From Bacillales bacterium (GTDB taxonomy: Bacteria; Bacillota_I; Bacilli_A; RF39; UBA660): DNA of 64,000 nt. Below the pieces are notes generated by a model. The model made no database searches. It saw only the letters and a list, made by a program, of their open reading frames with translations, and was not told where the DNA came from. The stretch's first letter is position 1. Each line of letters begins with the position of its first letter. A program made the position numbers and the translations under genes. The stretch is taken from positions 49,751 to 113,750 of the forward strand of contig JAEEKZ010000046.1 of assembly GCA_016288635.1 (NCBI GenBank), given 5' to 3'. Below are positions 2,672 through 59,091 of this stretch, piece by piece.

Positions 2672-2705
2672 AATAAAAAAAGTGCTATTTCTAGCACTTA
2701 TTTTA
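2672..2705 (-). terminator. Rho-independent terminator downstream of the fused giant ORF; appears bidirectional
   Basis: Hairpin AAGTGCTA-tttc-TAGCACTT with an A-run on one side and a T-run on the other. It sits immediately after the stop codon at 2703. Confidence 0.5.
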
Positions 2706-44907: not shown

Positions 44908-44940
44908 TAAATAAAAAAATATAAGTCTTTCGACTTATAT
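44908..44940 (-). terminator. Rho-independent terminator ending the Tad-like locus
   Basis: Hairpin ATAAGTC-tttc-GACTTAT followed by a T-run on the minus strand. Confidence 0.5.
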
Positions 44941-45953
44941 TAAAATATACTTGGGAACCCACTTTTTACTGAATTACCTAATCTTGAGAAGCCTAAACCA
45001 TTCAAGAATTTAGTTAATTCTTCAACATTTGCATCCTTATCATCCATTGATGGCATATTATAGAAAATATGTACACCTAGATCTTTTTCTAACTCAGAAA
45101 TACCTTTTGCATTAATTGTACTTTGATTAATTACAACTTTCTTTCCAGATAAGTTTTTAAATGTCTCAGGATTCATTTTTATTGCCTTATTTAATTTGAC
45201 AATACTCGTTTCCATTAGATAGACAACATCATTACATAATGATTCATTACCTGATTCATTTAAATCTACGATAATAACATTCATATCTTGCATATTGCCA
45301 ATTGCCGTCTGCAATTCATTAGCATGAACACTAACATATTCTTTCGGATTTTCTCTATCTCTAAAAAAATCAAAATCTGTTTTATCAACTTCTATACATT
45401 TAACTTTATAACATTTATCAAGACATTTCTTTAACATATAAGCTAAAGTTGTAGCTCCAGCTCCATCAGTTAAATTCTTAATTCCCAACACTTTTTGAGC
45501 CATCTCTCCATTTAAATAACTATCAGCAGCTTCCTCTGATTTATCGTTAAATGGATTAATATTTATACCACCAAAATTTTGATATTGTTCAACATCAGCA
45601 TAAGAATTTGGATGATCTATTAAATATGGAATATTATTGACTTCTCTTGTAAAATTATAAATACCCATATTAACTAAATTGCTTAAGAATTCTCTTGAAT
45701 TTGTTTTTCTAGAATCATCTAATAAAAGAATTATCTTACTTGCATCAAAGTTTCTTGAAAGGCCCCTAAGTGTCTCAGAGTTTTCATAGTTCTTTAAAGC
45801 AGTTACATCTATTATCATTTTATTAAAAAATTGTCCATTTCCAAATTTACTAACAATTTCACTAACGGAATAAACTCCATTTAAAACATTATCAGACACA
45901 ATATCCAAACTTGATAATAATTGTTGATATTTATTCGAAATAATTATATTCAT
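44940..45953 (-). CDS. TadZ/CpaE-like pilus-assembly protein with a degenerate ParA/MinD fold
   Basis: N-terminal receiver-like region. Atypical P-loop GIKNLTDGAGATTLAYMLK in place of KGGxGKTT. Positioned as in other tad loci. Confidence 0.45.
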   Translation of the reverse strand: MNIIISNKYQQLLSSLDIVSDNVLNGVYSVSEIVSKFGNGQFFNKMIIDVTALKNYENSETLRGLSRNFDASKIILLLDDSRKTNSREFLSNLVNMGIYNFTREVNNIPYLIDHPNSYADVEQYQNFGGININPFNDKSEEAADSYLNGEMAQKVLGIKNLTDGAGATTLAYMLKKCLDKCYKVKCIEVDKTDFDFFRDRENPKEYVSVHANELQTAIGNMQDMNVIIVDLNESGNESLCNDVVYLMETSIVKLNKAIKMNPETFKNLSGKKVVINQSTINAKGISELEKDLGVHIFYNMPSMDDKDANVEELTKFLNGLGFSRLGNSVKSGFPSIF

Positions 45954-46024
45954 TTGAACCTCCTAATTAACATTTTACATTTATATCATACTTTTTTATT
46001 TATTTATAGTCAATCAAATTTAAA

Positions 46025-46056
46025 TAAAAAACAAGACTTTACAAATCTTGTTCATT
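46025..46056 (-). terminator. Intra-locus terminator or attenuator between the 166-aa gene and the tadZ-like gene
   Basis: Hairpin AACAAGA-ctttacaaa-TCTTGTT followed by a T-run on the minus strand. Confidence 0.4.
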
Positions 46057-46065
46057 TTATTTTAT

Positions 46066-46566
46066 TTATGGATTTTGTACCCACATATCAGGCAAACTTT
46101 GATCGTATAAAATATTTGTTGTTCCATTTACTCTAAATGTGCCAAATAAATTAAAAATTGGCAAATCTATAATATGGAAAAACATAATTCTATAATACAT
46201 TTTAGTTTGTCCTTCTTCTGTAGTTATTGTAATTCTCTTTAGGCAATAATTATATGTAGTAGTATTGTCAGCCAAAACAGGTTTCTCACCATAATTGACA
46301 CCATACCAGCCACCATATTCAGAATCACCGTTATCATGATAGCATGAACCTCTATTACTATAATTCTGCGTTTGAAAATAAGAATCCATTATTCCTTTAG
46401 ATATTTCGGTATAACCATTATATTTTTCAAGAATATTTAAAGCCTCATTTTTAAGTCTATATACCCTTTGATATGACATAGTTAAAGCAAGGAAACTTGA
46501 AAACAATATAATAAATAAAATTACTGCCAAAAATGCATACGCAGACATACTACTTTCTTTTATCAT
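46066..46566 (-). CDS. Small membrane-anchored protein (pseudopilin or TadE/F-like candidate)
   Basis: The MIKESS... N-terminus followed by a hydrophobic helix. 166 aa. Sits in the Tad-like locus. Confidence 0.3.
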   Translation of the reverse strand: MIKESSMSAYAFLAVILFIILFSSFLALTMSYQRVYRLKNEALNILEKYNGYTEISKGIMDSYFQTQNYSNRGSCYHDNGDSEYGGWYGVNYGEKPVLADNTTTYNYCLKRITITTEEGQTKMYYRIMFFHIIDLPIFNLFGTFRVNGTTNILYDQSLPDMWVQNP

Positions 46567-46593
46567 ACTTCAACCTCTTTAACTATTTAGGAC

Positions 46594-47073
46594 CTAACTA
46601 CAATTATAAACAATTGGAGTCTGTCCCGTAACTTTCATACTCCATACAGAAGAAACCATTGGAATATAAAAACTATAAAACAATTGAACCATATAATAGC
46701 AACCATGTTGTTTATCTGGATCAGCTAGTATTTCTTTTCCTTCTCCAAATTCATTGACAGCTTCAACCATTTTAACGCATAGAACTGCAGTTGAATTATC
46801 AACATTAGTTCCTGATCTATCATATCCGTCATAGCCATTACTACATTTACCTGTTGAATAATGATTAGATTCCTTAATTGTTTTTAACAATTCATCGTCT
46901 ATACCATCACTATCACGGAATTTACCACGATAGTTTTTTATATATTGTACAACGTCATTCTTAACGCCAGAAGCATTTGCTCTATTTAACGTTGTACTCA
47001 TTATACCAACAAATAATAGTATAAAAAATACTACTATTAATAATATTGGCCCACCAGTTAAACCTTCCTTCAT
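46594..47073 (-). CDS. Small membrane-anchored protein (pseudopilin or TadE/F-like candidate)
   Basis: The MKEGLTGGPILLIVVFFILLF N-terminus. 159 aa. Sits in the Tad-like locus. Confidence 0.3.
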   Translation of the reverse strand: MKEGLTGGPILLIVVFFILLFVGIMSTTLNRANASGVKNDVVQYIKNYRGKFRDSDGIDDELLKTIKESNHYSTGKCSNGYDGYDRSGTNVDNSTAVLCVKMVEAVNEFGEGKEILADPDKQHGCYYMVQLFYSFYIPMVSSVWSMKVTGQTPIVYNCS

Positions 47074-47081
47074 TAAAACAC

Positions 47082-47324
47082 CTATCCTTTATATGGACAT
47101 TGTATATCATGCTTTTTATAACAACACCAAATCATACCATCAGATACGTCGTTATTTACAACCCCATCACACTTTCTGCCGCAAATTGCTTTATCACAAC
47201 TTGATTGGCTTTCAAAATTTGAGTGCAATGCAGGCCATATAACAGTTAAAAAAAAGGCTATTAGCATGCCAATTAAAATAACAACAACTAACATACTTGA
47301 TAGTTCTTCAGTAGCCTCTTTCAT
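47082..47324 (-). CDS. Cys-rich mini-pilin candidate (non-canonical Flp-like)
   Basis: 80 aa: MKEATEELSS leader, one hydrophobic helix, and a C-terminal 40 aa with 7 Cys. Confidence 0.4.
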   Translation of the reverse strand: MKEATEELSSMLVVVILIGMLIAFFLTVIWPALHSNFESQSSCDKAICGRKCDGVVNNDVSDGMIWCCYKKHDIQCPYKG

Positions 47325-47342
47325 TTTTATATTATCCTTTTA

Positions 47343-47606
47343 TTATCTATCGCCATTTTTATTAGGACATTGAATTTTGTTTTCAGATAATATAGAGTGA
47401 CCTTCTTCGTCTTCCTCATAATACTGACATTCACATGTATTAGAACCCTCAGCACACTCACAGTTTACTGCAGCAGCACAATGTATACCTGCATCAATTT
47501 GTGTTCTTATCATTGGAAGTACAATTGTAGCAAATAATGTTGCAATTAAACCGATTGCAACTACGGCAATAACTGTTGTACTTAATTCACCTGTAGCTTC
47601 TTTCAT
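47343..47606 (-). CDS. Cys-rich mini-pilin candidate (non-canonical Flp-like)
   Basis: 87 aa: MKEATGELST leader, one hydrophobic helix, and a C-terminus with 7 Cys. Paralog of 47082-47324. Confidence 0.4.
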   Translation of the reverse strand: MKEATGELSTTVIAVVAIGLIATLFATIVLPMIRTQIDAGIHCAAAVNCECAEGSNTCECQYYEEDEEGHSILSENKIQCPNKNGDR

Positions 47607-47695
47607 TAATTTATTCCTCCTTTATCTTAATTTTAGTATACAATAATATATTTTTTTTATCAATATTTCTTGACATTTACACTGTAAAGCATTTT

Positions 47696-48487
47696 TTATG
47701 ATGATCCCATCATCTGCATTACAGATAACAACAATAGTATCATTAATCCAACACCGGTTGATACAAGCATTTGCATAGTTTTGTTTTCCATCTTTTCAAG
47801 ACGATTAGCATATCTAGTTTCTCTTGCTTTTTGTTGCAATGACGAAATAGTTCTTGAAAACATTACTAATTGTTCCTGTTTTCTTTCCTGTCTTCCTAAT
47901 GATAATCTATATAACAATCTCATCATACGCATTGAATCTCTAACAGGATATCTTTTAGCAAAGTTCATATATGGGGTAATTGTATCATCACCTGAATTGA
48001 TTTCATCAATCATAATCTTTAAACCATCTTTAAATATCTCTGGTGAGTCAGTAATAGACTTACCTATTGCAACAGGAACAGTATAGTGTTGAATTAATAT
48101 TTCTAATCCTTTCAAGTATTGAGGTAATAATGAGTCAATTTGCATCATATGATCTTTATAATACTTACTTAAATTGATATATCCCATCTTAAATACCCCA
48201 AATCCAATTGCAATTGAGATACAAATTGTTAACACAGATATTTTAGTAATCATTGCTAGCAATGCAAGTGTAGATACTATCATCCAATACTTAATTCTCT
48301 GATTAAAAAGTACGTTTGGATTAACTGATTCTCCATACCTTGCTTTTACATAGAAATCATAATCCTCTTCTTTTAATTTTCTAAAAAGCATTTCATTATC
48401 TGTAACAAGTTGATTTAGGCTTATCTGACCAGATGAAACCATTACAACAAATATTATTACAGTTAATATAAGCATTTCTATTTGCAT
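47696..48487 (-). CDS. tadC: TadC-like inner-membrane platform protein (T2SS-F domain)
   Basis: Polytopic membrane protein with a GspF-like domain, next to the tadB-like gene and tadA. Confidence 0.6.
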   Translation of the reverse strand: MQIEMLILTVIIFVVMVSSGQISLNQLVTDNEMLFRKLKEEDYDFYVKARYGESVNPNVLFNQRIKYWMIVSTLALLAMITKISVLTICISIAIGFGVFKMGYINLSKYYKDHMMQIDSLLPQYLKGLEILIQHYTVPVAIGKSITDSPEIFKDGLKIMIDEINSGDDTITPYMNFAKRYPVRDSMRMMRLLYRLSLGRQERKQEQLVMFSRTISSLQQKARETRYANRLEKMENKTMQMLVSTGVGLMILLLLSVMQMMGSS

Positions 48488-49413
48488 TATTCTACCCCCA
48501 CATCTTCATTAAAGAATGTTTCTCCTTTTAGCATAAAGAAACCATTTATAATTATAATTGCATGTAGAATTACTTGAACATACCATAAATTTAATAACTT
48601 GGTTTGATATGAATCCATGCCAAGCATAAACTGGAATGCAACTGGTAAAAAGAACAAAGCTCCACCAAATGTTAAGAATTTTCTATGAGATGCTTTTCTA
48701 TCCATTTGGTCACGATATACACCTTCAACTAGTGAGTCAATATCCATTGACATGTTTTCCAATGCTTGCCCAGAATCTTTTGCACCTTCTTTTGTAATTT
48801 GCAAAAACAACTGGTGCATATTTTTTACCATATAAAATGGATATCTATTATTGAAATATGCTATAGATTCATCTATCGTACCATTTTGATATGACATATC
48901 AATCATAACTTTAATATCTGATTTAATTGGATCTTCAATAATTCCAGATTCATAAACTCCCTCAAGAGATTTAACAAAACTTTGTGTAGTATTAAACTCC
49001 ATAATGACGTTCGTAGTATATGTTTGAATTTGTTCAAAAATAAAATCAGAATATTTCTTTTTACTTTGTAAATAAGCCAAAAATGGAACGAATGTAATAG
49101 CAATTCCACAATAAATTATTGCCCAAATTATAGAAATAAAATATAAATACCCGATAATGGCAGCAAAGCCACCAATTAAGGTACACTGAACAATATATTG
49201 TTTAGATGTATAATTATATCCAAATTCTTGCATTTTCTTTTTAACTTCAGCAAAAGAATATGCTGCATATTTTTGCTGCAAATTATTAATATTTTTGTTT
49301 AAAGAATCAATTCCATTGCCAGTTTTTGCATTAGAATTATCTTTTGATTTAACAAAAATAATCAAAAGAGCAAGTCCTAACAGAATTGCTAATTCCAAAA
49401 AAGTTTCAGTCAT
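48487..49413 (-). CDS. tadB: TadB-like inner-membrane platform protein (T2SS-F domain)
   Basis: 308-aa membrane protein with a GspF-like architecture. It is translationally coupled (ATGA overlap) to the tadC-like gene. Confidence 0.6.
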   Translation of the reverse strand: MTETFLELAILLGLALLIIFVKSKDNSNAKTGNGIDSLNKNINNLQQKYAAYSFAEVKKKMQEFGYNYTSKQYIVQCTLIGGFAAIIGYLYFISIIWAIIYCGIAITFVPFLAYLQSKKKYSDFIFEQIQTYTTNVIMEFNTTQSFVKSLEGVYESGIIEDPIKSDIKVMIDMSYQNGTIDESIAYFNNRYPFYMVKNMHQLFLQITKEGAKDSGQALENMSMDIDSLVEGVYRDQMDRKASHRKFLTFGGALFFLPVAFQFMLGMDSYQTKLLNLWYVQVILHAIIIINGFFMLKGETFFNEDVGVE

Positions 49414-49430
49414 ATATTATTACCACCCTT

Positions 49431-50816
49431 CTAAGCCGTTCCTATCGGTACAGCCGGAATTTGTGGTTGTACTTGCGCATTAATTACTTGTCCTTGAGCT
49501 TGAACTTGAGGCATTTGTTGTGGCGCTTGTGCAGCCTGCATAGTAGGCATTGGAGCTGGTTGTGCAGTCACAACCGGTTGAGGATTTACAACAGGTTGTT
49601 GTGTCTGTACAGGAGCCTGTGCTACCTGCTGAGGAACTGCTTGAGGTTGACTAGGAACAGTTGGTGCAGGTTCAGAAATAGGTTGAACCGGATTTTGTTC
49701 CACAGTTTCTTTAACTTCCTCATTTTCTCCCTCAGGAGGATTATTTGCAATTTCAGCATCAAAAAGATTTGGCTGAAGAATAACCCCTTGGCTTCCCAAA
49801 TAATCATATAAATGATGAGTAGGATTGTGATAACAAATTCTACCATCTAAATTTCTTTTAAAAATTGTATTAACTGCAGGTTCATTATTATCATCAACAT
49901 AAAATTGAGATACTTCTACAATCTCACGTTTAAACTTTCCAATAGTGTTATCCATAAAACCTTTAACATGAACTCCAAGTTGTACATATCTATGAATTGA
50001 GTTTAAGAATTGTTGTACGTCTTGACTTGATTCCATTAAGGAATAAAGACGCATTGGTATATTTGCAGCACTATCTGAGTGAATTGTTGAAATAATATTG
50101 TGACCTGATGAAATAGAGTTACGTACAGCAGTAACAGCTTCAGCGGAACGAACCTCGGAAAGTAGAATCCATTTAGGGTTCTGTCTCATACATGTAACCA
50201 ATACTTCTGTATAACTTGCAATATTATTTGTTTTCATTGCAACTATATCTCTATGTGGATAAATTTTATCCAAGTGAAGTTCTAGTGTATCCTCAATTGT
50301 AATGATCTTTTCATTTTCAGCAGTATTACTTGCCAAGTACTTAACAAGCTCTGTTTTACCTGAACCAGTTTCACCACTAACCATAATATTGCAGTGTCCA
50401 TGTACACAAGTAATTAAAAAGTCTAATACGCTCTCAGAAATATAATCTTCATTTAGTAACTTTTCGCGATTTAATCTTATCTTAGCTGGGGTCTTACGTA
50501 TAACACATGCTATTCCATTTGTCGCAATAGATTCATGTACAAAGTTAAGACGCAACTCCGAACTTTCGGCATCAAGAAATGGTGAAGCCATATTGAAAGT
50601 TTTACCCATTACATTCGAACATTGAAACGCCAATTTTTCAAACAAAGCATTATTTATATCAGGTCTATCAACACGATATATACCTTTATCTAATGTTTTA
50701 AGCCAAACTTGTCCTCCATTTGAATATGAAACGTCGGTAACATTATCATCATTTAGAAATTCCTTTAAAGGCCCAAAATCTAACTGTGAAAATATAGCCT
50801 CATTCATTTTTATCAA
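49431..50816 (-). CDS. tadA: CpaF/TadA secretion ATPase (VirB11/T2SS-E superfamily)
   Basis: Walker A VSGETGSGKTE, Asp box ITIEDTLEL and a His box. The C-terminal 95 aa are Pro/Gln/Ala/Val low complexity. Confidence 0.85.
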   Translation of the reverse strand: MIKMNEAIFSQLDFGPLKEFLNDDNVTDVSYSNGGQVWLKTLDKGIYRVDRPDINNALFEKLAFQCSNVMGKTFNMASPFLDAESSELRLNFVHESIATNGIACVIRKTPAKIRLNREKLLNEDYISESVLDFLITCVHGHCNIMVSGETGSGKTELVKYLASNTAENEKIITIEDTLELHLDKIYPHRDIVAMKTNNIASYTEVLVTCMRQNPKWILLSEVRSAEAVTAVRNSISSGHNIISTIHSDSAANIPMRLYSLMESSQDVQQFLNSIHRYVQLGVHVKGFMDNTIGKFKREIVEVSQFYVDDNNEPAVNTIFKRNLDGRICYHNPTHHLYDYLGSQGVILQPNLFDAEIANNPPEGENEEVKETVEQNPVQPISEPAPTVPSQPQAVPQQVAQAPVQTQQPVVNPQPVVTAQPAPMPTMQAAQAPQQMPQVQAQGQVINAQVQPQIPAVPIGTA

Positions 50817-50830
50817 CCCTTTCTATTTAT

Positions 50831-51664
50831 TTATTCATCTGCTACATATGTATAATCAGTATTCATCATTGAAACAGAATCAACATATTGCTTTAATCTA
50901 CTGAATTCTTCAGATTTAATATTTTCCCCTTCATTTTGAAATTTTTCTGAATAACTTGCTCCTCTTGGAATAGGGACTAGTCTAAAACCATATCCGCTTA
51001 GTTTTTCAATTGATTTTAAAACTTCCCAATCCTCTTTAACAACTTTAAACCACAAATGTGTAGGAATATCATATGGATCTTGAGCAAATACATCTTTACC
51101 TTTATTCATTACTTTATAAACTTTTATATGTTTAATAAAATTCTGAAAAACCATTCTATTGTTGCCCGCTCTTGAATTTGCTTCTATTCTTAAATATAAA
51201 TCAATATATGATCCTGGTAAAATAGAATTACCATAAGAAAGCGTATTATTAACGCTAAGATGATAAATATAATAAGTTCCATCAAACTCTTCATCTTCAT
51301 ATAAATTATTACAATTTTCAGAAGTAAGAGCATCTAAATAAACTAAACCATTGTTAGGGATGGAATATCCTTCCTTAATACAGTAATCGCCAGAAACGAT
51401 TTTTCCGTAATCACCTTGCTTAACAACATCCAACTTACTTAAAAATTTTTTACTAACATTTGCACGTCCAATACTTTCTGCTGTAATAATATCTCCTGGA
51501 TATAGCGCTTTCTTTGCAATATAAACTGTTCCTGGATTCTTACCTGTTGATACTAAGTTGTTATATACGACCCATATTACTATAGTAACTACTATAATAA
51601 TAAGCCCTCCAAGAGCTTTTTTATTACTAGCTATTGATCTTAAGTAATTAACGAATTGTGTCAT
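50831..51664 (-). CDS. CpaB/RcpC-like pilus-assembly protein (paralog 1 of 3)
   Basis: N-terminal TM helix, a SAF-like start (VYIAKKALYPGDIITAESI) and the conserved motif YGNSILPGSYIDLYL. Confidence 0.6.
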   Translation of the reverse strand: MTQFVNYLRSIASNKKALGGLIIIVVTIVIWVVYNNLVSTGKNPGTVYIAKKALYPGDIITAESIGRANVSKKFLSKLDVVKQGDYGKIVSGDYCIKEGYSIPNNGLVYLDALTSENCNNLYEDEEFDGTYYIYHLSVNNTLSYGNSILPGSYIDLYLRIEANSRAGNNRMVFQNFIKHIKVYKVMNKGKDVFAQDPYDIPTHLWFKVVKEDWEVLKSIEKLSGYGFRLVPIPRGASYSEKFQNEGENIKSEEFSRLKQYVDSVSMMNTDYTYVADE

Positions 51665-51666
51665 TT

Positions 51667-52452
51667 CTAGTTCCCCACATTACCATTATATCTTTGAATA
51701 ATAGCTGATAATTCATTTGAAACTTTTTTCGTTTCGCCATCATTTTGTCCATATTCAATTCCTCTTGGTACCGGAACTAAAGTCCAATCACCGCCCAATT
51801 CACGAATAAATGTTAATTCTTCGAATAAATCATTTTCAATAGCAAATAACATTAAACTTGGTTTAGTTGGAGTATCTTGAGCAAATACGTTTTTTCCGCT
51901 TCCGTCTCTAACTTCTAAAACCTGGATTTTTTCTACATACTTTTGGAATATCCTTCCGCCAGTATCAGGATTTTTTCCCTTTAAATATAAGTCAATATAA
52001 CTTCCAGGCGTAATAGAATTTCCATATGTAGATTTATCATCAACTGACATATAAAAAATACCATAGTTCTCATCTAATCCTTGCCAAATAGAATTTTGAA
52101 CTTCTTCTTTTTTTACAATTTGATTTCTATCTTTATAAAAAAAGCCAGATTTAGGGACAGTAACATTAACATTTGTATATAAATCATTTAAATTGTCTTT
52201 CGTATAAAAAATATTTAATTTTTTTGCAAGTGTTTCACTAATCTTTACTCTTACAAGCATAGTACTATCAATTTTAGTAACGGGTTTTATTGTTGCTCCT
52301 GCTGCCCAAACTTCAACAGATTTTGTTGACTGGCCAACTCTATAACTATAACCAACCCATAAAACAACAATACCAACAAGAACAGCAAATATTGTAACAG
52401 TATTTTTGTTCATTGCAAATCGCTTTATTCCAGCAATAATACCATTTCCCAT
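51667..52452 (-). CDS. CpaB/RcpC-like pilus-assembly protein (paralog 2 of 3)
   Basis: N-terminal TM helix and the shared motif YGNSITPGSYIDLYLKG. C-terminus (LVPVPRG) matches paralog 1. Confidence 0.6.
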   Translation of the reverse strand: MGNGIIAGIKRFAMNKNTVTIFAVLVGIVVLWVGYSYRVGQSTKSVEVWAAGATIKPVTKIDSTMLVRVKISETLAKKLNIFYTKDNLNDLYTNVNVTVPKSGFFYKDRNQIVKKEEVQNSIWQGLDENYGIFYMSVDDKSTYGNSITPGSYIDLYLKGKNPDTGGRIFQKYVEKIQVLEVRDGSGKNVFAQDTPTKPSLMLFAIENDLFEELTFIRELGGDWTLVPVPRGIEYGQNDGETKKVSNELSAIIQRYNGNVGN

Positions 52453-52469
52453 TTTTAATTCTCCTTTTT

Positions 52470-53249
52470 TTAATCAAGTGTACTTGAGTATAATTTACGC
52501 TTAATAAATTCTTCTGTAACTCTACCATCACAGGTGGTTTCTTCTTTCATATTACCAATTGGAACTGGATAAAAAGTTACTCCAGAAGTTGACCCTACTG
52601 TCAAATATTGATAATAATGATTTGAAACAATAAAATACATTATTGCAGGAGTACCATTATAACCTTTTTGACTAACATCCTTTAAAGATTTATCTCTAAC
52701 AGAATATACCTTTATACTACCAATATAGCACTCTTGCATTAACGTGCCTACTTCATCAACATATTTTGAATATATAGCCACATTTTGACCAGGCTTAATA
52801 GAATTGAAATCAGTATCAATAGAAGTAACATCTAACATATAAATTGTTTGATCATCTTCTACCTCACGCCAAATATCGTCTGGCATTTCCTCTTCACTTA
52901 CAATGACATCTTTATAAAATAAGCCCTTTTTAGGTATTGTAGCTGATATTTTAACATATTTACCAATAAGGTTATTTGCTTCAGATGCCTTGTAAATCAT
53001 CGAATCAGTTCTGCCAGATGCCTTATTTAAAGCTTTAAGATCAGCACTATTCATTTTCATTCTAATAAACATAGTAGCGTCAATTTGCGTTTTACCATTA
53101 ATAGTATCTTTAGCAACTAAAACCTCAACAGGACCAGTCAATATTTGAGTCCTATAATAATACCCGCCAACAATAACCGCTATTCCAGCAATAACGCCAA
53201 ATAACACAATAGTCTTTTTGTTTATAAAAAACTTTAATAACCCTTTCAT
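52470..53249 (-). CDS. CpaB/RcpC-like pilus-assembly protein (paralog 3 of 3, most diverged)
   Basis: Same size and topology as the other two. Motif SIKPGQNVAIYSKY and C-terminal FYPVPIGN. Confidence 0.55.
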   Translation of the reverse strand: MKGLLKFFINKKTIVLFGVIAGIAVIVGGYYYRTQILTGPVEVLVAKDTINGKTQIDATMFIRMKMNSADLKALNKASGRTDSMIYKASEANNLIGKYVKISATIPKKGLFYKDVIVSEEEMPDDIWREVEDDQTIYMLDVTSIDTDFNSIKPGQNVAIYSKYVDEVGTLMQECYIGSIKVYSVRDKSLKDVSQKGYNGTPAIMYFIVSNHYYQYLTVGSTSGVTFYPVPIGNMKEETTCDGRVTEEFIKRKLYSSTLD

Positions 53250-53268
53250 TATTGTTCACTTTCTATAA

Positions 53269-53685
53269 TTAATTAGCTTTTACGTATTTACCCGCAATAA
53301 TAGCATCAATATTATTTGTAATGTCGTATACAGCTTTATCTCCGTCAATATTAAAACTTGCTGATTTTGTAGAAATCCTAACACTAACCTTAGGTGGTGC
53401 TTCATAAATTGCTACAAACTCAATAGTATATGTTTGCGTTAAAGATGTTTCTTCAGCCATTCTTCTTATAAAGTTTTCCATAAATTTTTCTTTGTTAATC
53501 TTTAACTCACCATATGTTCTATAGTAACCTTTATCAACAGCATCAACCATAGATGCTTCAGCGATAGAATTTATTAAATATCTATCCTCAGTACTAGTTG
53601 TTGTAATACTTTGAACAAGTAGCATAATAACCACAACAAAAATACCTAATAAAATTAACCAATATCCCCACATTGCATTTCTCAT
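53269..53685 (-). CDS. Small membrane-anchored protein; first gene of the Tad-like operon
   Basis: 138 aa with one N-terminal TM helix. Preceded by an intergenic region containing the terminator of the upstream module. Confidence 0.35.
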   Translation of the reverse strand: MRNAMWGYWLILLGIFVVVIMLLVQSITTTSTEDRYLINSIAEASMVDAVDKGYYRTYGELKINKEKFMENFIRRMAEETSLTQTYTIEFVAIYEAPPKVSVRISTKSASFNIDGDKAVYDITNNIDAIIAGKYVKAN

Positions 53686-53779
53686 AAAAACACTCTCCTT
53701 ATAGGGTATAACTTCCCTACCCTTACTATTTAAAATTTTACCATATCTAATTTATAAATACAAGTTTACAAAACGTTAA

Positions 53780-53814
53780 TTTTATAAAAAAAACATGAAA
53801 TTTTCATTTCATGT
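53780..53814 (-). terminator. Rho-independent terminator after giant gene 2
   Basis: Hairpin ACATGAAAT-tttc-ATTTCATGT followed by a T-run on the minus strand, placed directly after the stop at 53815. Confidence 0.5.
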
Positions 53815-56800
53815 TTATCTCCAAGAAGGTCCTCCAATTTGGCTCATTTCTCCTTCAACAATCTTATTAATCTTCTCAGCATATTGACCGCAACTACTGC
53901 CGCCACAATCAGGTTGATCAATAAATGTTTGCCAATAGCCATTTTGATTATTAGTTGTACTTCTTGAATTATCATCACTTAATCTACCAGAATAGAAAGT
54001 GAAATTAGGATTATCTCTATACTCATCTAAGAATGAACTATAGCAGAATATCTTTTCGAATTTATAAGTATCATAAGTGTAATCATAACACATTAATGTT
54101 TGATCAGTAAAACTCTTATCATCATTATAATTTCTTATTTTTTGAGCAAGACTTGGCGTCATGACAACTTTCAACACACCAAAGTCTGTTGGAGAACTTA
54201 TACCCTCGATTGAAGGTTGTCCTTCATAAACATCATCAGTTCCCAATTCTTTAGAAACATATATCAATTCTCCGTATGTTTGAATTTCATTAATTGTTAA
54301 TTTTGCTTTATCACTAATGATTTTATATCTATCTCCATATTCCTCAGAAACTGACCATGCATTCCAGTTATATGGAACGTATTCAGATCCAGGAGGACTA
54401 ACTACAGATATAACCTCATTTGGATCATTAGGATTGCCTTGAGGCACACGCAATGGTATTGGCGTAACATCAAGATGGAATTCTTTCTTAGAATAAATAC
54501 AATCTACACATTCGATGTCACAAACAGGGCAGCAATTCTCTCCTTTACATTCCTCTACTGTGGTTTCACATCCGTCTTCATCACATCCAGGAATACATGT
54601 AGGACAATTTCCTTGATTTACTCTATAGTAACATAAATACTCATACTCTGAATCATCATTAAATATTGGTTTCTCAGCACTATTATATTTACCCAAAACA
54701 GTATTTTCATCTTTGTGATTCTTAGCATTTAAAACTCTGCCTTCACCTTCATGATCGAAATATTCTCCAATATCACTGAATGTAAATGTAAATTTATGAA
54801 GTCCGCTCTCAGTTTCTAATTGAACTGGTAAGTCACCAAAATCAACTTTCATTCTTTGATTTTCATTATCTTCAAAATTTGAATCACTTCTTAAAACTAC
54901 AACACCACTTGGATATAAAGTAGCAAATAAGTTTGGAGAAGCATATTCATAATGAACTTCAATATTCTTTTTTGTAAATGTTTTATTACTCATATCTTGA
55001 GGATCAGATTCTAAAACATAATAACCGCTTCCTAAATTCATTTTTACATAATTAACAGATTCTTCTTGGAGAGATGCTGTAACACAACCGTTATTTCTAT
55101 TACCTGAATACTCATCATTTACACATGGATCTGTATTACTTCTCTCATCATCATATTTAATTGTGCTTCCACTTAACTCTTTTTTTATTTTACTTTTATC
55201 AATTTTAGTTGCCTTCAATGTAGTATCAGTTGCTGAACTTGACCAATCATCAGCACCATCAATATTAGAGATTTCTTCTTTTTCACCTCTAACAAGTGGA
55301 ACAGCATCGATACTCGGATCTTTTATCATATCAAAATAACCATAATCATAGTTTTTACTTTCATCATCTTGATATCCATATTTGAAGTTAATATCAGGTT
55401 CCGTATTATACTTCATATCATTATACCAACTAGTACAACGATTAATTTGGTCAATATAATTATTTATATTTTTGAATGCTGTATCTATTGCTGTTTTAGC
55501 GCTATCATATTCAGTCTGATATTCTGAAATCAATTCATTTAATTGCTCAGTAGCAGTTTTTCTTTCAACAATACAATTCTCGTAATCATATACTAAAATA
55601 TCTTTTTTCTTAGTAGCGGGATTATACTCATAATGAAAACCAGATGATTGTGCAGATTGTTCTGTAGCTGTCTCTGTTTCAAAATATTTTTGAACAGTTG
55701 AATCTAATGGCTTTCCTTCTTCGACTATATAACTGATATGATAATCAGTCGTTTTATCTTTATCTATTCGAATTTTATACTCAATTGGTTTTACAGGGCC
55801 TTCGACTTCATATGTAATAGTTTCAATTGAATAAGTTTTAGCTTGTGTACATTCATCAGGATTCTTCTCATTTTCTGGATTATATACACTAGCTGGTCTA
55901 TTTTTCTGTAAATATTGAAGTCTAACATAAGCCAAATTCATTTTATTAATATTATCATTAATAATTTCAATTTCCTTATTTACTTGTTCATTAAATAAAT
56001 CTAGATCTATTTCACGTCTATTATTATCTTCTGCAGAACTTGAATAACATGTTTTCTTGGCATTGTAAGCTGCAGACAATTTAAAGTATCTACCACTATT
56101 AGCATCTTGCATACCCGCAACAGAATAACCATATTTATATTTTTGATCTTCTAATAGGTTTCCATCTTTATCAAATTTACCGAAATCTTCTTTACATAAT
56201 ACTTTGCAATAATTATTTCCATAAACTATCTTTGTTTCTAATGAGTTACCAGCATAGTCTTCTTTTTTCTCAAGAACACATTTAACAATGTTATTATCTT
56301 CAATTTCTTTATATGTTAAATAGTTAACACTCTCTTTATCTTCATTAGATGTTTTAGTTAAATCACCAACTTGCTCACCATCAGAAAATGATATTTCTTC
56401 TGTTTCTTCAGGATTTTCACATGTATTGTGATATGAAACAAATGGTTTACATTTAGAACACTTTGCCTTATCAACTTTAACACCATCGATATAATATTTA
56501 TTATTTATAACACAACAGTCTTCATATTTAGTACCACAACATTTTTCGTTCCATTCATCAGAACCTGACAATACCTCACCAGCAGGTCCATAATATTTGC
56601 CACCAAACAATTCACACTTGTGTTCGCCAACATTAGAACACTCTTCATCATATTGTTGTTTTAAAATAACAGTAAATGGATCAAGGCCATAATAAATTGT
56701 ATTTCCGCTTCCATCGGTTTCAATACGACATTTACATTTATCTCTATAAGCTTCTTCAGATTCTAAAGGGGTTCCATCAGGCCCATAATAAGTGCCATTT

Positions 56801-58245
56801 TCATATTTACACAAATTTTTACTTTCACACTTTTCTTCAAAATCTTCTTTAGACTCTAACACTTCCGCACTAGGTCCATAATATATAGTATTACCATTAC
56901 TATCTTCTTCTTTACGACATCCACATGACTTTTTGTATGCTTCCTCAGAATCAACAGGTTTTCCGTCTACTCCGTAATAAGTATTACCTACTTTTTTACA
57001 TTTGTTTTTACACTGTTCGTTCCATTCATCTTCAGTCTGAAGAATATTATCTGGTGGATTTGGTGGAATTGGTCCATAATATCTAATAGAACCATCTATT
57101 TCTAATTTTACGCAAGAACAATCTTTTTTAAATTCCTCTTCTGTTACTTCTGTACCATCTTTTCCATAATAAATCCCATTTTCATGTTTACAAACATTCT
57201 CAGATTTACATTGTGCAATTTGATCACTTTCAGATCCAACTGTTGTTGGAGGATTTGGTCCATAATATATAGTAGGCTTTCCATCTAAATCAAAAGTTCT
57301 ACATTTACACTTGTCTTTATATTCATCAAATGACACAACATCTTGCTTTGTTTTATTACTATCTAAAACATAATATGTAAGTGGAGTCGTAGAATCATCT
57401 ACATTACAATCACAATAATATATAAATTCTTGCTCTGAATCAGCTGTTTTTCCATCAGGCAAAAACCAATATTTATACTCCGGTTGTTGAGTACAAGCAC
57501 ATTGATCTAAAAATACTTTTTTATCTTCAACAACTTTGCCATCAATGTAATATACAGCAGGTGTTTTTGATTCATCTACGCAACAACCTTCAACATCTTT
57601 ACAATTATTTTCTTCAATAGTTATATCATCACAATCAGCAATATACATTGGTTGTCTATTAGCTATTTTATACATTTGACTTTCTTTATGAAAATAATAT
57701 GGGTGTGCTTCATAAATTTTACAAGATTTGCCTTCTTCTATATTTTTTTCTATTTCACCGCATAGATCATGTGTGCATGAACCAGATCGAGAAAGATCAC
57801 GAATAGCATAATAGTATCTTTTTCCGCCATATTTCTCATCTATCCCCGCTAATTTTTGCAAGCATGCATAATCATCGTTACTGCAATTTGCCGCTTTACG
57901 AGCCGCATACCAGTATTTTCCTAGTGTTTTGCATAGTTCACTATTACATTCAACAGCATTATAGCGATCATTTGCTTTAAAGTGTAATCCGCCTTTCCCA
58001 CAAACAGCATCATGACCAACCAAATTAGTTAATTCGCATTTTTCGCCACGAACCTTAAATCTTGAATAAGTCGCTTGTAAATATTCATTTTCACCAACTT
58101 GTTTTCCTCTACCATATATATCCATAAATCCCAAGTTAGGATTTGAAAGATATTCTTCCGGTTCCGCAAAAACATTGCTAGGTATTAACAATAATAAAAA
58201 TATAAACGATAATAATAAACAATTTATTTTTTTCATATTAATCAC
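53815..58245 (-). CDS. Giant Cys-rich secreted protein (module 2 large subunit), candidate surface adhesin
   Basis: Signal peptide LLLIPSNVFA. 1476 aa with more than 100 Cys. Repeated CxxENGTYYGPDGTxxxSEEAYxxxCxC units, a central conserved domain, and a C-terminus VLKVVMTPSLAQKIRNYN...IGGPSWR shared with 2703-7373 and 59125-63075. Confidence 0.6.
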   Translation of the reverse strand: MINMKKINCLLLSFIFLLLLIPSNVFAEPEEYLSNPNLGFMDIYGRGKQVGENEYLQATYSRFKVRGEKCELTNLVGHDAVCGKGGLHFKANDRYNAVECNSELCKTLGKYWYAARKAANCSNDDYACLQKLAGIDEKYGGKRYYYAIRDLSRSGSCTHDLCGEIEKNIEEGKSCKIYEAHPYYFHKESQMYKIANRQPMYIADCDDITIEENNCKDVEGCCVDESKTPAVYYIDGKVVEDKKVFLDQCACTQQPEYKYWFLPDGKTADSEQEFIYYCDCNVDDSTTPLTYYVLDSNKTKQDVVSFDEYKDKCKCRTFDLDGKPTIYYGPNPPTTVGSESDQIAQCKSENVCKHENGIYYGKDGTEVTEEEFKKDCSCVKLEIDGSIRYYGPIPPNPPDNILQTEDEWNEQCKNKCKKVGNTYYGVDGKPVDSEEAYKKSCGCRKEEDSNGNTIYYGPSAEVLESKEDFEEKCESKNLCKYENGTYYGPDGTPLESEEAYRDKCKCRIETDGSGNTIYYGLDPFTVILKQQYDEECSNVGEHKCELFGGKYYGPAGEVLSGSDEWNEKCCGTKYEDCCVINNKYYIDGVKVDKAKCSKCKPFVSYHNTCENPEETEEISFSDGEQVGDLTKTSNEDKESVNYLTYKEIEDNNIVKCVLEKKEDYAGNSLETKIVYGNNYCKVLCKEDFGKFDKDGNLLEDQKYKYGYSVAGMQDANSGRYFKLSAAYNAKKTCYSSSAEDNNRREIDLDLFNEQVNKEIEIINDNINKMNLAYVRLQYLQKNRPASVYNPENEKNPDECTQAKTYSIETITYEVEGPVKPIEYKIRIDKDKTTDYHISYIVEEGKPLDSTVQKYFETETATEQSAQSSGFHYEYNPATKKKDILVYDYENCIVERKTATEQLNELISEYQTEYDSAKTAIDTAFKNINNYIDQINRCTSWYNDMKYNTEPDINFKYGYQDDESKNYDYGYFDMIKDPSIDAVPLVRGEKEEISNIDGADDWSSSATDTTLKATKIDKSKIKKELSGSTIKYDDERSNTDPCVNDEYSGNRNNGCVTASLQEESVNYVKMNLGSGYYVLESDPQDMSNKTFTKKNIEVHYEYASPNLFATLYPSGVVVLRSDSNFEDNENQRMKVDFGDLPVQLETESGLHKFTFTFSDIGEYFDHEGEGRVLNAKNHKDENTVLGKYNSAEKPIFNDDSEYEYLCYYRVNQGNCPTCIPGCDEDGCETTVEECKGENCCPVCDIECVDCIYSKKEFHLDVTPIPLRVPQGNPNDPNEVISVVSPPGSEYVPYNWNAWSVSEEYGDRYKIISDKAKLTINEIQTYGELIYVSKELGTDDVYEGQPSIEGISSPTDFGVLKVVMTPSLAQKIRNYNDDKSFTDQTLMCYDYTYDTYKFEKIFCYSSFLDEYRDNPNFTFYSGRLSDDNSRSTTNNQNGYWQTFIDQPDCGGSSCGQYAEKINKIVEGEMSQIGGPSWR

Positions 58246-59023
58246 GTTTTTTTCCTTTCATTACAATTACACTAGCCACAATAATAGTCGCCCCGCCAAT
58301 CATAATCATAACTGGCGCTAATAATGAATTCTCTTCTTTTGCATTATTTTTAGTAGGCTTTCCTTCCTTTTCTATTCCCCTTTTTACCTTTTCTTCACGT
58401 ATTTCTGTCGAATAAGATAACAAATCTAGTTTTGTATCAAATGAACTAACAAATGGCTGGCACAAATAATATTCCTCAATATCCTTACACTCTACATAGC
58501 TATAATAAGGATTAGTTCGAGGTAACGTTAAATCAACTACTCTCAAAATTTCGTTGTAACATCCACTTTTTTCTGTACCTACAATCGTAAAAACAAACTT
58601 ATCAGTTTTAAAGGAAGTATCATACCTAAAACTATACTTTCCATTTTTTGTATCTTCATAATTTATCGATGTTGGAATCTCGTTATAAGATGTATTAGCA
58701 TGACTTACATTCACCTTGAAATTTTCGCTTATATTTAATAATTCCACAGTCAAATATTTATCTTCAACAATAGGATAATATTCTCCAGGGCTATCAAAAA
58801 AAGCCTCTTCTTCGCCGCCTTCCCTATATTTATCATAACAGGCATCTTCTACTTCACACACCTCGATGTGCGGCGTATAAATTGCTTTTACGTTGTTTGC
58901 TTCCCTTATCAACGCTCCTTTTTTATCAGCATCACATGTAGCAGCTTTAACTCTAGAACAACCTAGAAACAAAATACTAACTACCAATAAAAAAGATAAT
59001 ATTTTCATAATCTTACTTTTCAT
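58238..59023 (-). CDS. Small type-I membrane protein (module 2 small subunit)
   Basis: Signal peptide, about 210-aa ectodomain with conserved Cys (ATCDADKKGALIREANN ... YLCQPF), a C-terminal TM helix and a basic tail KGKKRD. The stop overlaps the large-gene start by 8 nt. Confidence 0.55.
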   Translation of the reverse strand: MKSKIMKILSFLLVVSILFLGCSRVKAATCDADKKGALIREANNVKAIYTPHIEVCEVEDACYDKYREGGEEEAFFDSPGEYYPIVEDKYLTVELLNISENFKVNVSHANTSYNEIPTSINYEDTKNGKYSFRYDTSFKTDKFVFTIVGTEKSGCYNEILRVVDLTLPRTNPYYSYVECKDIEEYYLCQPFVSSFDTKLDLLSYSTEIREEKVKRGIEKEGKPTKNNAKEENSLLAPVMIMIGGATIIVASVIVMKGKKRD

Positions 59024-59048
59024 TTTCTTGTCCTACCTTACTAAATTA

Positions 59049-59076
59049 ATTTTATCATAATTTTTAATTTATGCAA
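59049..59076 (-). promoter_or_regulatory. Putative promoter of module 2 (TTGCAT, 16-nt spacer, TAAAAT); duplicated upstream of module 3
   Basis: On the minus strand: TTGCAT aaattaaaaattatga TAAAAT, followed by the RBS AAGGTAGGA and ATG. An almost identical 40-nt block lies at 63880-63926. Confidence 0.35.
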
Positions 59077-59091
59077 CTTTATTATAGCAAA

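Follow-up and report, generated by a model that had tools for sequence, protein, structure and literature searches.

Tad/Flp systems, as described in Caulobacter (Cpa), Aggregatibacter (Tad) and Bifidobacterium breve (Tad), comprise a T2SSE ATPase with two polytopic membrane proteins encoded directly 3' of it, a membrane-anchored CpaB/RcpC protein, a TadZ/CpaE-type two-domain ParA/MinD protein, very small pilins and two larger pilin-like proteins. Monoderm Tad systems have no secretin, RcpC is listed as missing from them in a 2019 review, and in B. breve the prepilin peptidase is encoded away from the Tad locus. In the Clostridia, a Tad-like cluster of TANB77 was described in which CpaB, TadZ/CpaE, TadA and TadB/C are recognised mainly by structural homology (PMC11680825), and a putative DUF5411 secretion operon of Roseburia, Ruminococcus and Eubacterium, a class defined by computational description only, was flagged as uncharacterised (Miller et al. 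2022, PMC9523054). Lastly, the VirB11/CpaF block of conjugative plasmids (pAW63, pXO2, pBT9727 and those of Listeria and Paraclostridium) runs from a large surface protein (of 1416 aa in pAW63, and in Paraclostridium a thioester protein of 783 aa) through a small TM protein and the ATPase to membrane proteins of ~275 and ~245 aa and, last, small TM proteins.

The locus analysed here, in a window of 64,000 nucleotides (the whole stretch of DNA studied), is a genuine operon, strongly conserved among uncultured gut Bacilli, and unites a putative, very diverged Tad-type pilus machine with giant cysteine-rich surface proteins (Table 1); related modules are those of pXO2/pAW63-type conjugative plasmids and the Clostridial DUF5411 operon flagged in 2022. 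A previous sequence-only reading had described the gene order, all on the minus strand, a start about 130 nt after the terminator of giant 2 and a second terminator before the TadZ-like gene; every ORF was found in its place, and both intergenic regions hold a hairpin with a U-run, terminator-like after giant 2. A hairpin similar to that of giant 2 sits 3' of giant 1 (59024-59124), the partner 1 gene runs up to or into the beginning of giant 1, and the genes of the two platform-like membrane proteins overlap by 1 nt in their coordinates. The ATPase family was found in at least 580 species-level genomes, exclusively uncultured Bacilli/"Tenericutes" MAGs, most of which are syntenic for the order partner, giant, DUF5411, one or two CpaB, ATPase, two membrane proteins, pilins, p159, p166 and TadZ-like protein; since some 80 species-level loci repeat this order, the arrangement is not due to chance. 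The neighbours of the inspected loci are housekeeping genes (ezrA, nifS-like, uvrA), which vary by species, with ezrA here and uvrA or addAB elsewhere. The window also holds murB, murG and ftsQ as well as ezrA, which indicates a cell wall in the host. A canonical prepilin-like ORF was noticed by eye elsewhere in the window (10702-11073).

Table 1. Features of the pilus-type locus and of the giant-protein modules, with positions in the window.
Feature	Position	Strand	Remarks
Partner 1, 266 aa	63072..63872	-	Signal peptide, 7-Cys extracytoplasmic domain, C-terminal TM anchor, basic tail
Giant 1, 1316 aa, 58 Cys	59125..63075	-	Sec signal peptide
Partner 2, 261 aa, paralog of partner 1	58238..59023	-	
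Giant 2, 1476 aa, 65 Cys	53815..58245	-	Sec signal peptide
Gap between giant 2 and DUF5411 gene, 129 nt	53686..53814	-	AT-rich hairpin and U-run at its opening; z -2.4 and -3.7, the hairpin 3' of giant 1 included
DUF5411 small TM protein, 138 aa	53269..53685	-	Pfam DUF5411 5e-51
CpaB/RcpC-like paralog 1, 259 aa, N-terminal TM	52470..53249	-	35% identity to paralog 2
CpaB/RcpC-like paralog 2, 261 aa	51667..52452	-	Pfam RcpC 1.2e-4
CpaB/RcpC-like paralog 3, 277 aa	50831..51664	-	RcpC 4.9e-3
Secretion/pilus ATPase, 461 aa	49431..50816	-	Pfam T2SSE 1.2e-27, 96.9 bits
Platform-like polytopic membrane protein 1 ("TadB-like"), 308 aa	48487..49413	-	
Platform-like polytopic membrane protein 2 ("TadC-like"), 263 aa	47696..48487	-	
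Pilin-like protein 1, 87 aa, 6 Cys	47343..47606	-	N-terminus MKEATGELSTTV, then TM helix
Pilin-like protein 2, 80 aa, 6 Cys	47082..47324	-	N-terminus MKEATEELSSML, then TM helix
p159, 159 aa, candidate minor/pseudo-pilin	46594..47073	-	N-terminal consensus, then TM segment
p166, 166 aa, paralog of p159	46066..46566	-	hhalign 100% to p159
Intergenic hairpin and U-run 3' of p166	45954..46065	-	
p337, TadZ/CpaE-like, 337 aa	44940..45953	-	Fold
Remote third module, 1556-aa ORF	2703..7373	-	Partner-like N-part fused to giant, C-terminus FGGPSWK

The ATPase has a short, VirB11-sized core with the Walker A motif GETGSGKTE and, beyond the core, ~110 aa of P/Q-rich tail. Its earlier naming as CpaF/TadA stands as far as the T2SSE family (PF00437, against a cutoff of 24.9 bits). 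Within it, all NCBIfam subfamily models stay under their cutoffs, VirB11 (112 bits) and TadA-family (108 bits) both by far; the PDB profile matches are CpaF (6e-17), VirB11-like (2.6e-16), archaeal GspE (8e-16) and FlaI (7e-15). A Com pilus was considered and rejected, as ComGA scores 79.6 bits against a cutoff of 300, no T2SSF was found where ComGB has two such domains, and the pilin N-termini differ from the G/FTLxE of ComGC-type pilins. The three CpaB-like proteins are true paralogs, with identities of 35% (paralogs 1 and 2, E 1e-37), 33% (paralogs 3 and 2, E 3e-27) and 29% (E 6e-10). Taken singly, paralog 1 has no direct Pfam match, and the RcpC and TIGR03177 matches of paralog 2 (TIGR03177 1e-5, residues 19-214) and paralog 3 (TIGR03177 6e-5) lie under the curated Pfam and TIGRFAM cutoffs. 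The assignment holds at the level of the family: 76 of its 83 members match RcpC (PF16976) at E<=0.01 (best 1.4e-8), 22 match SAF, and the family aligns to Ralstonia CpaB (hhalign 90.8%, E 1.2e-6), so that the SAF and RcpC domains and the N-terminal TM segment of Tad RcpC/CpaB proteins are all represented. Three copies are indeed unusual, other loci carrying one (56 loci) or two (18 loci) and none three, and the three-copy set is confined to the lineage of the window. Moreover, p337 combines an N-terminal receiver-like domain with a ParA/MinD-fold domain in the two-domain architecture of TadZ/CpaE, an assignment that holds by fold only; its Walker A is degenerate (GxKNxTxxAGxTT), with the lysine missing.

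The remaining machine parts are more diverged. None of the sequence methods detected T2SSF in the two platform-like proteins, Foldseek gave no match, and the TadC-like protein matches nothing in Pfam or PDB; HMM searches, on which the sequence-only reading had staked both its CpaB and its TadB/TadC assignments, bear out the former and fail for the latter, leaving for TadB/TadC one weak structural hint from a model with a pLDDT of 61. The TadC-like protein aligns (hhalign 93.6%, E 2e-7) to the second membrane protein that pXO2 and the Paraclostridium plasmid encode 3' of their VirB11/CpaF ATPase. The pilin-like N-terminus MKEATGELNMTV recurs in ~100 orthologs with no E-Y at +5/+6, hence with neither the Flp motif G/XXXXEY nor the +5 Glu; no Flp_Fap, TadE or N_methyl model matches the pilins, Flp_Fap is absent among 129 members, and the commonest family that these match, weakly, is archaeal Pilin_N (5 members, best E 0.009). 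The small proteins once taken for Flp mini-pilins are thus not Flp. As for the 159- and 166-aa proteins, read before as TadE/F, TadE/F is not detectable, PF07811 being absent from the window proteins and from the 25 families most frequently matched by the 129 members, and the alignment to Ralstonia TadE staying below 1% in hhalign. The p159 family has the N-terminal consensus M-[KR]-E-x-[IT]-G (here MKEGLTGG), some orthologs in other species end in a Peptidase_M15 domain, and the 29-aa N-terminus of p166 aligns to the pilins (hhalign 72%). The pilin, p159 and p166 families have in common a short N-terminal motif ending in Gly and followed by a TM helix, and it is this motif, together with gene position, that suggests a pseudopilin role for the p159/p166 pair. 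No secretin domain was found in the locus proteins and no TadV in the window, both as previously noted: screening the window ORFs of 100 aa or more for TM segments gave no polytopic candidate for a prepilin peptidase, the only 7-TM protein of ~260 aa being CdsA, and none was found among the recurrent gene families of 80 genome loci (61 metagenome loci were screened for the locus families only). A peptidase missing at the locus is not decisive, because B. breve encodes its own elsewhere.

The DUF5411 protein has an N-terminal TM anchor and an extracytoplasmic domain of ~100 aa and aligns (hhalign 83.8%) to a protein of 119/129 aa that pXO2 and the Paraclostridium plasmid encode upstream of their ATPase. 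In other species the DUF5411 module is joined to peptidoglycan-hydrolase domains, its fusions involving Peptidase_M15, C39_2, SH3_3 and Big_2; for DUF5411 and p159 taken together the fusion partners include Peptidase_M15, C39_2 and SH3_3. The giants have no membrane anchor of their own, no pilin-like segment, no vWA module and no similarity to anything known in sequence or fold. Their N-parts are variable, Cys-rich and with a 31-aa repeat in giant 1, and their C-parts are conserved, spanning ~600-700 aa in giant 2 and ending in KIGGPAWK (giant 1) or QIGGPSWR (giant 2); the two are 42% identical over ~1130 aa (giant 1 residues 179-1316). The third-module ORF, 46 kb away from the locus, matches partner 2 (p261; 3.6e-16), giant 1 (1.3e-55) and giant 2 (2.2e-49). 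Partner 1 has no match in Pfam or PDB, and in most related loci the giant is immediately preceded by a partner ortholog of ~250 aa. Of 55 ATPase-anchored loci, 52 have an upstream ORF of 800 aa or more, with the C-terminus GP[SA][WY][KR] in 45 of the 55; the giant is absent from three, and some loci are split. In the opposite direction, DUF5411 lies downstream of the giant in all 42 evaluable giant-anchored metagenome loci, 37 of which also have the ATPase block, and in split loci it remains with the giants. Because of this adjacency the giants are part of the system. The sequence-only reading had left a dedicated apparatus and a shared genomic island side by side; the coupling holds both ways, and a merely shared island is therefore all but ruled out.

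Compared with the systems described above, the locus shares with Tad/Flp a T2SSE ATPase, with CpaF as its best PDB match, two polytopic membrane proteins encoded straight after it, membrane-anchored CpaB/RcpC, a two-domain TadZ/CpaE-type protein, and very small pilins with two larger pilin-like proteins, and it resembles monoderm Tad systems in having no secretin. It departs from Tad/Flp in its platform-like proteins without T2SSF signal, its pilins without G/XXXXEY or any Flp or TadE model match, the lack of tadV in the locus, an ATPase without the N-terminal extension of CpaF and the conserved extra parts DUF5411, partner and giant; it has one to three CpaB copies, unlike the monoderm systems of the 2019 review. 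The DUF5411 operon of Miller et al. (PMC9523054), likened here by description, also belongs to gut Firmicutes and shares the CpaF-type ATPase, membrane platform, DUF5411 protein and large surface protein, found here as a T2SSE ATPase, two membrane proteins, DUF5411 and giants in conserved order; its host is from the Clostridia and not the Bacilli, its platform protein is a recognisable PilC/GspF and its large protein internalin-like, and CpaB, TadZ-like protein, partner and GGPSWK giants are not reported there. The TANB77 cluster (PMC11680825), again from gut Firmicutes, has several small unannotated pilin-like proteins after the machine genes, whereas its TadB and TadC are fused and no DUF5411 or giant module is reported. 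The plasmid blocks have the same gene order and homologous TadC-like and DUF5411-like proteins (hhalign), but lie within transfer regions with VirD4, VirB4 and VirB2-like genes, have no annotated CpaB or TadZ-like gene, and carry surface proteins unrelated to the giants.

From the component identities, synteny and domain fusions, the locus may encode a type IV filament machine, Tad-like (type IVc-like) but strongly diverged, which gut Bacilli with a wall and a single membrane would build with the giants as one conserved system, a reading in which our confidence is evenly balanced. Specifically, a hexameric T2SSE ATPase would be placed on the two polytopic platform proteins, organised by the TadZ-like ParA/MinD-fold scaffold, and would power the assembly of the small, Cys-rich, pilin-like subunits, with the p159/p166 pair as primer; the membrane-anchored CpaB/RcpC proteins, one to three in number, would form an extracytoplasmic alignment cage, and DUF5411 would be an anchored extracytoplasmic adaptor that elsewhere bears the cell-wall hydrolase opening the peptidoglycan. 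The giants, exported by Sec and each paired 1:1 with its membrane-anchored partner, would dock via the conserved C-terminal region ending in GGPSWK and be carried out by the fibre, their variable Cys-rich N-parts acting as adhesins comparable to PilY1-type tip proteins. Filament formation, pilin processing and docking of the giants on the filament are predictions from the genes. Counting against the reading are the platform-like proteins without T2SSF signal, pilins unlike Flp, the prepilin peptidase found neither in the window nor in related loci, the lysine missing from the Walker A of p337, giants that have no pilin-like segment and match nothing known, and the loci that are split or have no giant, together with the remote giant of this window. 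Proteins of the PilY1 kind are large and Sec-exported or located at the tip; their outward part varies, and a conserved part docks on the minor-pilin complex. The likeness to PilY1/PilC tips of type IVa pili and to Tad tip complexes (CpaL/TadG, Myxococcus Kil tips) is one of logic only, including the possibility of several interchangeable versions per genome; the giants have no sequence or fold similarity to these proteins, and their docking is putative.

Alternatively, the same component set and synteny could belong to a T2SS-like piston, in which a short pseudopilus drives the giants, once exported by Sec, across the thick wall as substrates that are released or passed to the wall. Giants with Sec signal peptides and no anchor would suit such a device, the wall-hydrolase fusions point to wall crossing as the key step, and the related Clostridial DUF5411 operon was placed as secretion-related (Miller et al. 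2022, PMC9523054). However, TadZ and CpaB are hallmarks of Tad and not parts of a T2SS, and a partner anchored in the membrane would fit retention of the giants better than their release. To our knowledge, T2SS substrates share no common domain, and the giants, with their conserved docking-type C-terminal region of ~600 aa and invariant C-terminal motif, are unlike those known; the piston appears unlikely.

Less probable still is a domesticated mating or DNA-transfer module, with its origin in the VirB11/CpaF block that conjugative plasmids of Firmicutes carry, and making cell-to-cell contact for DNA exchange or uptake, not for host adhesion. The best plasmid match of the ATPase (35.5% identity) sits in a conjugative-type region of the Paraclostridium plasmid, with weaker matches (~28-31%) on pXO2 and Listeria plasmids, and the plasmids share the gene order, from a large surface protein and small TM proteins through the ATPase and two membrane proteins to small proteins and a VirB2-like pilin. 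The alignments of the TadC-like and DUF5411 proteins to plasmid proteins, noted above, also favour this origin. Yet at least 80 species have the locus at a fixed place in the chromosome, with an ATPase 70-80% identical among them, which indicates vertical inheritance; the neighbours are housekeeping genes, and neither VirB4 nor VirD4 nor a relaxase could be recognised, whether in the window (Pfam and NCBIfam covering 37 of its 59 ORFs of at least 100 aa) or in the inspected loci (precomputed Pfam calls for loci L001-L004, the others labelled by blast/HMM to the locus proteins of the window). Within this coverage, a Gram-positive conjugative T4SS of the pAW63/pXO2/pLS20 type, which has these three and a VirB2-like pilin beside the VirB11-like ATPase, was rejected. 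Two ~120-aa proteins do follow p337 in 54 loci with weak T4SS_pilin matches, but these are sub-cutoff (1e-3), and the locus of the window has no such genes next to it; no CpaB or TadZ-like annotation occurs in the inspected plasmid modules, whose genes are mostly "hypothetical protein". Lastly, it is very improbable that pilus genes and giants are uncoupled neighbours, kept adjacent as conserved order in a slowly rearranging small genome. The two-way adjacency persists despite differing flanking genes, DUF5411 accompanies the giants in split loci, and the pAW63 module and the Paraclostridium plasmid also have a large surface protein upstream of their ATPase, as the Clostridial DUF5411 operons have one among their genes, against which stand the terminator-like hairpins between the giants and the DUF5411-to-p166 block, the very occurrence of split loci and the remote third giant.

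The interest of this operon of the uncultured gut Bacilli is that almost all of its parts are without annotation, and that its pilins and its cargo break the known rules of Tad systems.

The twelve consecutive minus-strand ORFs that the sequence-only reading had placed at 44940-53685, in a window of about 28-31% GC, are all present exactly as listed, and the locus that they form is most likely a Tad-like filament machine carrying the giants, the Cys-rich surface proteins encoded upstream. Each giant is preceded by the gene of a partner, a protein with a signal peptide and a C-terminal TM anchor, which abuts or overlaps the giant start codon. The interval between giant 2 and the first gene of the locus measures 129 nt, in line with the spacing previously noted, and opens with an AT-rich hairpin and a U-run. 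A near-identical AT-rich hairpin (ACAUGAA..UUCAUGUUUUUU) follows both giants, at 53786-53814 and 59099-59124 (-), which suggests that the modules arose by a duplication including the terminator; another hairpin lies 3' of the 166-aa gene, and a scan for promoter and terminator consensus sequences was uninformative in this AT-rich DNA. Elsewhere, the window encodes HtpG, L19, MurB, MurG, and FtsQ/DivIB, the last three of which indicate that the organism makes a cell wall.

Features of the locus, its surroundings, and related domain fusions in other loci (L numbers denote related genome or metagenome contigs)
Feature	Position	Strand	Basis or remark
Module 1: ~260-aa protein, then giant 1	63072-63872; 59125-63075	-	Upstream of the locus
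Module 2: ~260-aa protein, then giant 2	58238-59023; 53815-58245	-	Upstream of the locus
Small TM protein	53269-53685	-	Pfam DUF5411, 5e-51, firm
CpaB-like proteins (three)	50831-53249	-	RcpC and SAF matches at family level, hhalign to Ralstonia CpaB
ATPase	49431-50816	-	T2SSE, 96.9 bits against a 24.9-bit cutoff
Mini-pilins	47082-47606	-	Non-canonical N-terminus common to both
p159 and p166	46066-47073	-	Paralogs with a common N-terminal motif
p337 (337 aa)	44940-45953	-	TadZ/CpaE architecture by fold
ezrA	Downstream of the locus		Pfam 1.8e-91
Cysteine-desulfurase-like gene	Downstream of the locus		With ezrA
Wall-hydrolase fusions (DUF5411 and p159 orthologs)	L054:7378-9189; L070:2564-4249; L025:7934-9082; L001:13484-15007		

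By sequence, the ATPase is a firm member of the T2SSE superfamily, whose subfamily is fixed neither by the NCBIfam models (VirB11, TadA-family, TrbB, ComGA, and FlaI all score well below cutoff for the window protein) nor by the comparison of the family profile with the PDB, in which CpaF, VirB11-like, archaeal GspE, and FlaI entries rank nearly equal (6e-17 to 7e-15). The enzyme is short and VirB11-sized, since its match starts at about residue 139 of Caulobacter CpaF. The window copy bears a Pro/Gln-rich C-terminal tail of ~110 aa (49431-49760 (-)) that is missing from most orthologs (360-390 aa), and an exact-protein lookup of the window ATPase returned no match. The three CpaB-like proteins are true paralogs (35, 33, and 29% identity), and their proposed assignment to CpaB/RcpC is accepted at the family level: RcpC and TIGR03177 matches are sub-threshold and occur in only two of the three window proteins; among the 83 family members, RcpC is matched at E<=0.01 in 76 (best 1.4e-8) and SAF in 22, and the family profile aligns with Ralstonia CpaB at 90.8% probability (hhalign). 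Three copies are indeed unusual, being restricted to the window and its near relative L004, with one copy in 56 loci and two in 18. The TadZ-like call for p337 is upheld on structure only; hhalign gives no link from p337 to TadZ, and searches of PDB sequences with the p337, CpaB, and DUF5411 family profiles yield no meaningful match.

The weak point of the case lies in the two polytopic membrane proteins encoded after the ATPase, tadB-like (308 aa) and tadC-like (263 aa), whose assignment as TadB and TadC is not supported by sequence. Specifically, the T2SSF signal is absent from both window proteins and from 15 distant relatives in a narrow family of 286 matches; the 120 close relatives are all annotated as 'hypothetical' and none has a Pfam domain; both profiles lack a meaningful match among PDB sequences; hhalign connects the two families neither with each other nor with Ralstonia TadB/TadC; and a Foldseek search of the PDB with the tadB-like model found nothing. 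The mini-pilins (87 and 80 aa) and the p159/p166 pair are pilin-like in form only and fit the definition of neither Flp nor TadE, the earlier TadE/F-like call for p159/p166 not being supported: none of the 129 pilin-like family members matches Flp_Fap, TadE, or N_methyl, and hhalign links neither the pilins to Flp nor p159/p166 to TadE/TadG. The commonest family match among these 129 members is archaeal Pilin_N, weak and limited to five of them. In the mini-pilins, a nearly invariant N-terminus, MKEATGELNMTV, leads into a TM helix and a short tail that contains 4-6 Cys; the paralogs p159 and p166 (hhalign 100%) share the motif M-[KR]-E-x-[IT]-G ahead of a TM segment.

As for pilin processing, no support was found for either of two candidate enzymes, namely the SipW-like signal peptidases encoded at 27-36 kb and an Rce1-like CPBP intramembrane protease (L051:3724-4443, Pfam 2.6e-12), which is encoded next to the partner gene, upstream of it and on the other strand, in 28 related loci. 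The genes from 27-36 kb that adjoin the pilus genes in some species are homologs of 28296-30973, not the SipW-like genes, and look like conserved neighbours; in the species locus L060, for example, they adjoin the tadC-like gene. The regions 27028-36196 (-) and 13513-14232 (-) hold a series of genes for single-TM proteins together with two or three for signal peptidase I of the SipW/archaeal type (34204-34938 matches TIGR02228 at 2.3e-22), accompanied by a 239-aa protein with a TasA-like N-terminus, and may constitute a separate TasA-like fibre system. Lastly, a 123-aa protein at 10702-11073 (-) has a canonical prepilin-type N-terminus, MNKKG/STILEMLIVIVAF, recognised by eye and matched by no HMM, which hints at a classical prepilin peptidase elsewhere in the genome.

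Giants and partners have no match in Pfam, NCBIfam, or the PDB. Every giant carries a Sec signal peptide, a variable Cys-rich N-part, and a conserved C-terminal region of about 600-700 aa that contains a Cys cluster and ends in an invariant ..GGP(S/A)WK. The N-part of giant 1 includes a 93-bp tandem repeat (62118-62538, 4.5 copies, 93% matches) that encodes a 31-aa Cys-containing unit and could be a length-variable region. A third giant module, at 2703-7373 (-) between htpG and ftsQ/murB/murG, 46 kb from the pilus locus, consists of a single 1556-aa ORF in which an N-part resembling the partner, with signal peptide, Cys domain, TM, and basic stretch, is fused to a giant that has a separate signal peptide and ends in FGGPSWK. 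The DUF5411 proteins of other species can carry an additional Peptidase_M15/VanY, Peptidase_C39_2, SH3_3, or Big_2 domain, and p159 orthologs can bear Peptidase_M15, fusions that tie both families to peptidoglycan cleavage or binding.

The ATPase family counts thousands of members, the best 120 of which share at least 63% identity with the window protein, and a scan of one genome per species gave at least 580 confirmed relatives. Those kept are essentially all MAGs of uncultured Bacilli or 'Tenericutes' from animal and human guts, including Clostridium sp. CAG:609, Ca. Onthocola, and Ca. Ventrenecus, with contigs from human-gut metagenomes and Hadza, rabbit, chicken, goat, and buffalo samples, and no cultured representative among the matches listed. 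The ATPase is 70-80% identical across genomes with the locus, and almost every locus protein is annotated as 'hypothetical'. The 80 loci kept share the order partner, giant, DUF5411, one or two CpaB, ATPase, tadB-like, tadC-like, one to three pilins, p159, p166, and p337, the pilin-to-p337 part being detached in about a fifth of them. Two paralogous ~120-aa two-TM proteins with a weak T4SS_pilin (PF18895) match follow p337 in 54 loci (L001:16498-16851 and 16902-17264); the pair is missing after p337 in the window, at whose cut left end (1-69 (-)) tblastn finds a 23-aa fragment (E 0.001). In one metagenome contig with the whole locus (L142:3188-14423), the giant, CpaB, ATPase, and tadB-like genes are fragmented, reflecting either decay or an assembly with frameshift errors.

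Among the 55 loci with 9 kb or more of sequence upstream of the ATPase, 52 have a plus-strand ORF there that is 800 aa or longer, and 45 of these ORFs end in GP[SA][WY][KR]. In the reciprocal test on metagenome contigs anchored on the giant C-terminal domain (10-sequence alignment), DUF5411 lies downstream in all 42 evaluable loci and CpaB and the ATPase also in 37, in a sample that is redundant and biased to relatives of the query. Exceptions are three ATPase loci with neither giant nor DUF5411, some lineages that keep partner, giant, and DUF5411 away from the ATPase, and, in the window itself, the remote fused module at 2703-7373. Despite them, this linkage makes the alternative raised by the sequence-only reading, that giants and pilus genes simply share a genomic island, not tenable, and their mere adjacency unlikely.

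Outside this clade, the ATPase has its best plasmid matches in genes labelled 'CpaF/VirB11 family' on a Paraclostridium plasmid (35.5% identity), on Listeria plasmids, and on pXO2. These plasmid regions share the layout of the locus, with a large surface protein (1416 aa in pAW63), small TM proteins, then the ATPase and a pair of membrane proteins, and lastly small proteins and a VirB2-like pilin; hhalign relates tadC-like (93.6%), DUF5411 (83.8%), and, weakly, tadB-like (9%) to their products. The VirB11/CpaF blocks of the Paraclostridium plasmid (L086, NZ_CP079739) and pXO2 (L090) also contain Flp-sized proteins of 47-49 aa starting MLDQNTDR and a DUF5411-like protein not annotated as such. 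An integrated conjugative element was rejected, given the fixed chromosomal position and the lack of recognised transfer genes in the window and the loci inspected. Among chromosomal systems, an operon of CpaF, PilC/GspF, DUF5411, and a large surface protein in Roseburia, Ruminococcus, and Eubacterium has been flagged as an uncharacterised secretion-related system (Miller et al. 2022, PMC9523054), and a TANB77 cluster has been annotated as Tad-like, mainly by structural homology (PMC11680825).

The main rivals of a filament machine are a piston that would secrete the giants and a domesticated mating or DNA-transfer module. We favour the filament, by analogy with published Tad architecture and tip complexes, because the ATPase, platform-like, TadZ-like, and CpaB proteins jointly correspond to the inner core of the Caulobacter machine, the small pilins and two larger pilin-like proteins are consistent with a fibre that has a priming or tip complex, the anchoring of the partner in the membrane suits a role in holding or loading, and the hydrolase fusions fit wall penetration. 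PilY1-type tip adhesins combine a variable outward-facing part with a conserved docking part, and the giants resemble them in both respects. We infer, rather than observe, filament formation, pilin processing, and giant docking: the small pilins would build the fibre, p159/p166 would prime or tip it, the partner would hold or load the giant, and the hydrolase domains would open the wall. A bolder proposal, which we regard as rather improbable when taken as a whole, is a separate 'DUF5411-type' subclass of type IV filament machines in gut Firmicutes and their conjugative plasmids, whose pilins would be used uncleaved or cut after a short MKEATG leader by a non-classical enzyme, and which would bear its own wall-opening module and be dedicated to loading giant Sec-exported adhesins, through a C-terminal GGPSWK docking region, and carrying them across the thick wall.

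The Tad-like type IV filament is known as a kind, and computational work has already pointed to a related DUF5411 operon. What appears undescribed is the distribution throughout this clade of uncultured Bacilli, the obligatory module of partner and giant with its C-terminal motif, pilin N-termini that are non-canonical and have no peptidase nearby, the multiple CpaB copies in a monoderm, the hydrolase fusions, and the component-level link to pXO2/pAW63-type plasmid blocks. These lineages are known mainly from MAGs, and to our knowledge their attachment to host or other cells is unstudied; the variable giants are candidate adhesins and antigens for the whole clade. Filament assembly in monoderms has been named as a main open question (Pelicic 2019), and the fusion of hydrolase domains to DUF5411 and to a pilin-like protein is relevant to the passage of type IV filaments through a thick wall. 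The link to pXO2/pAW63-type plasmids suggests, in turn, a possible identity for the 'VirB11' block of Gram-positive conjugative plasmids, which has long lacked an explanation.
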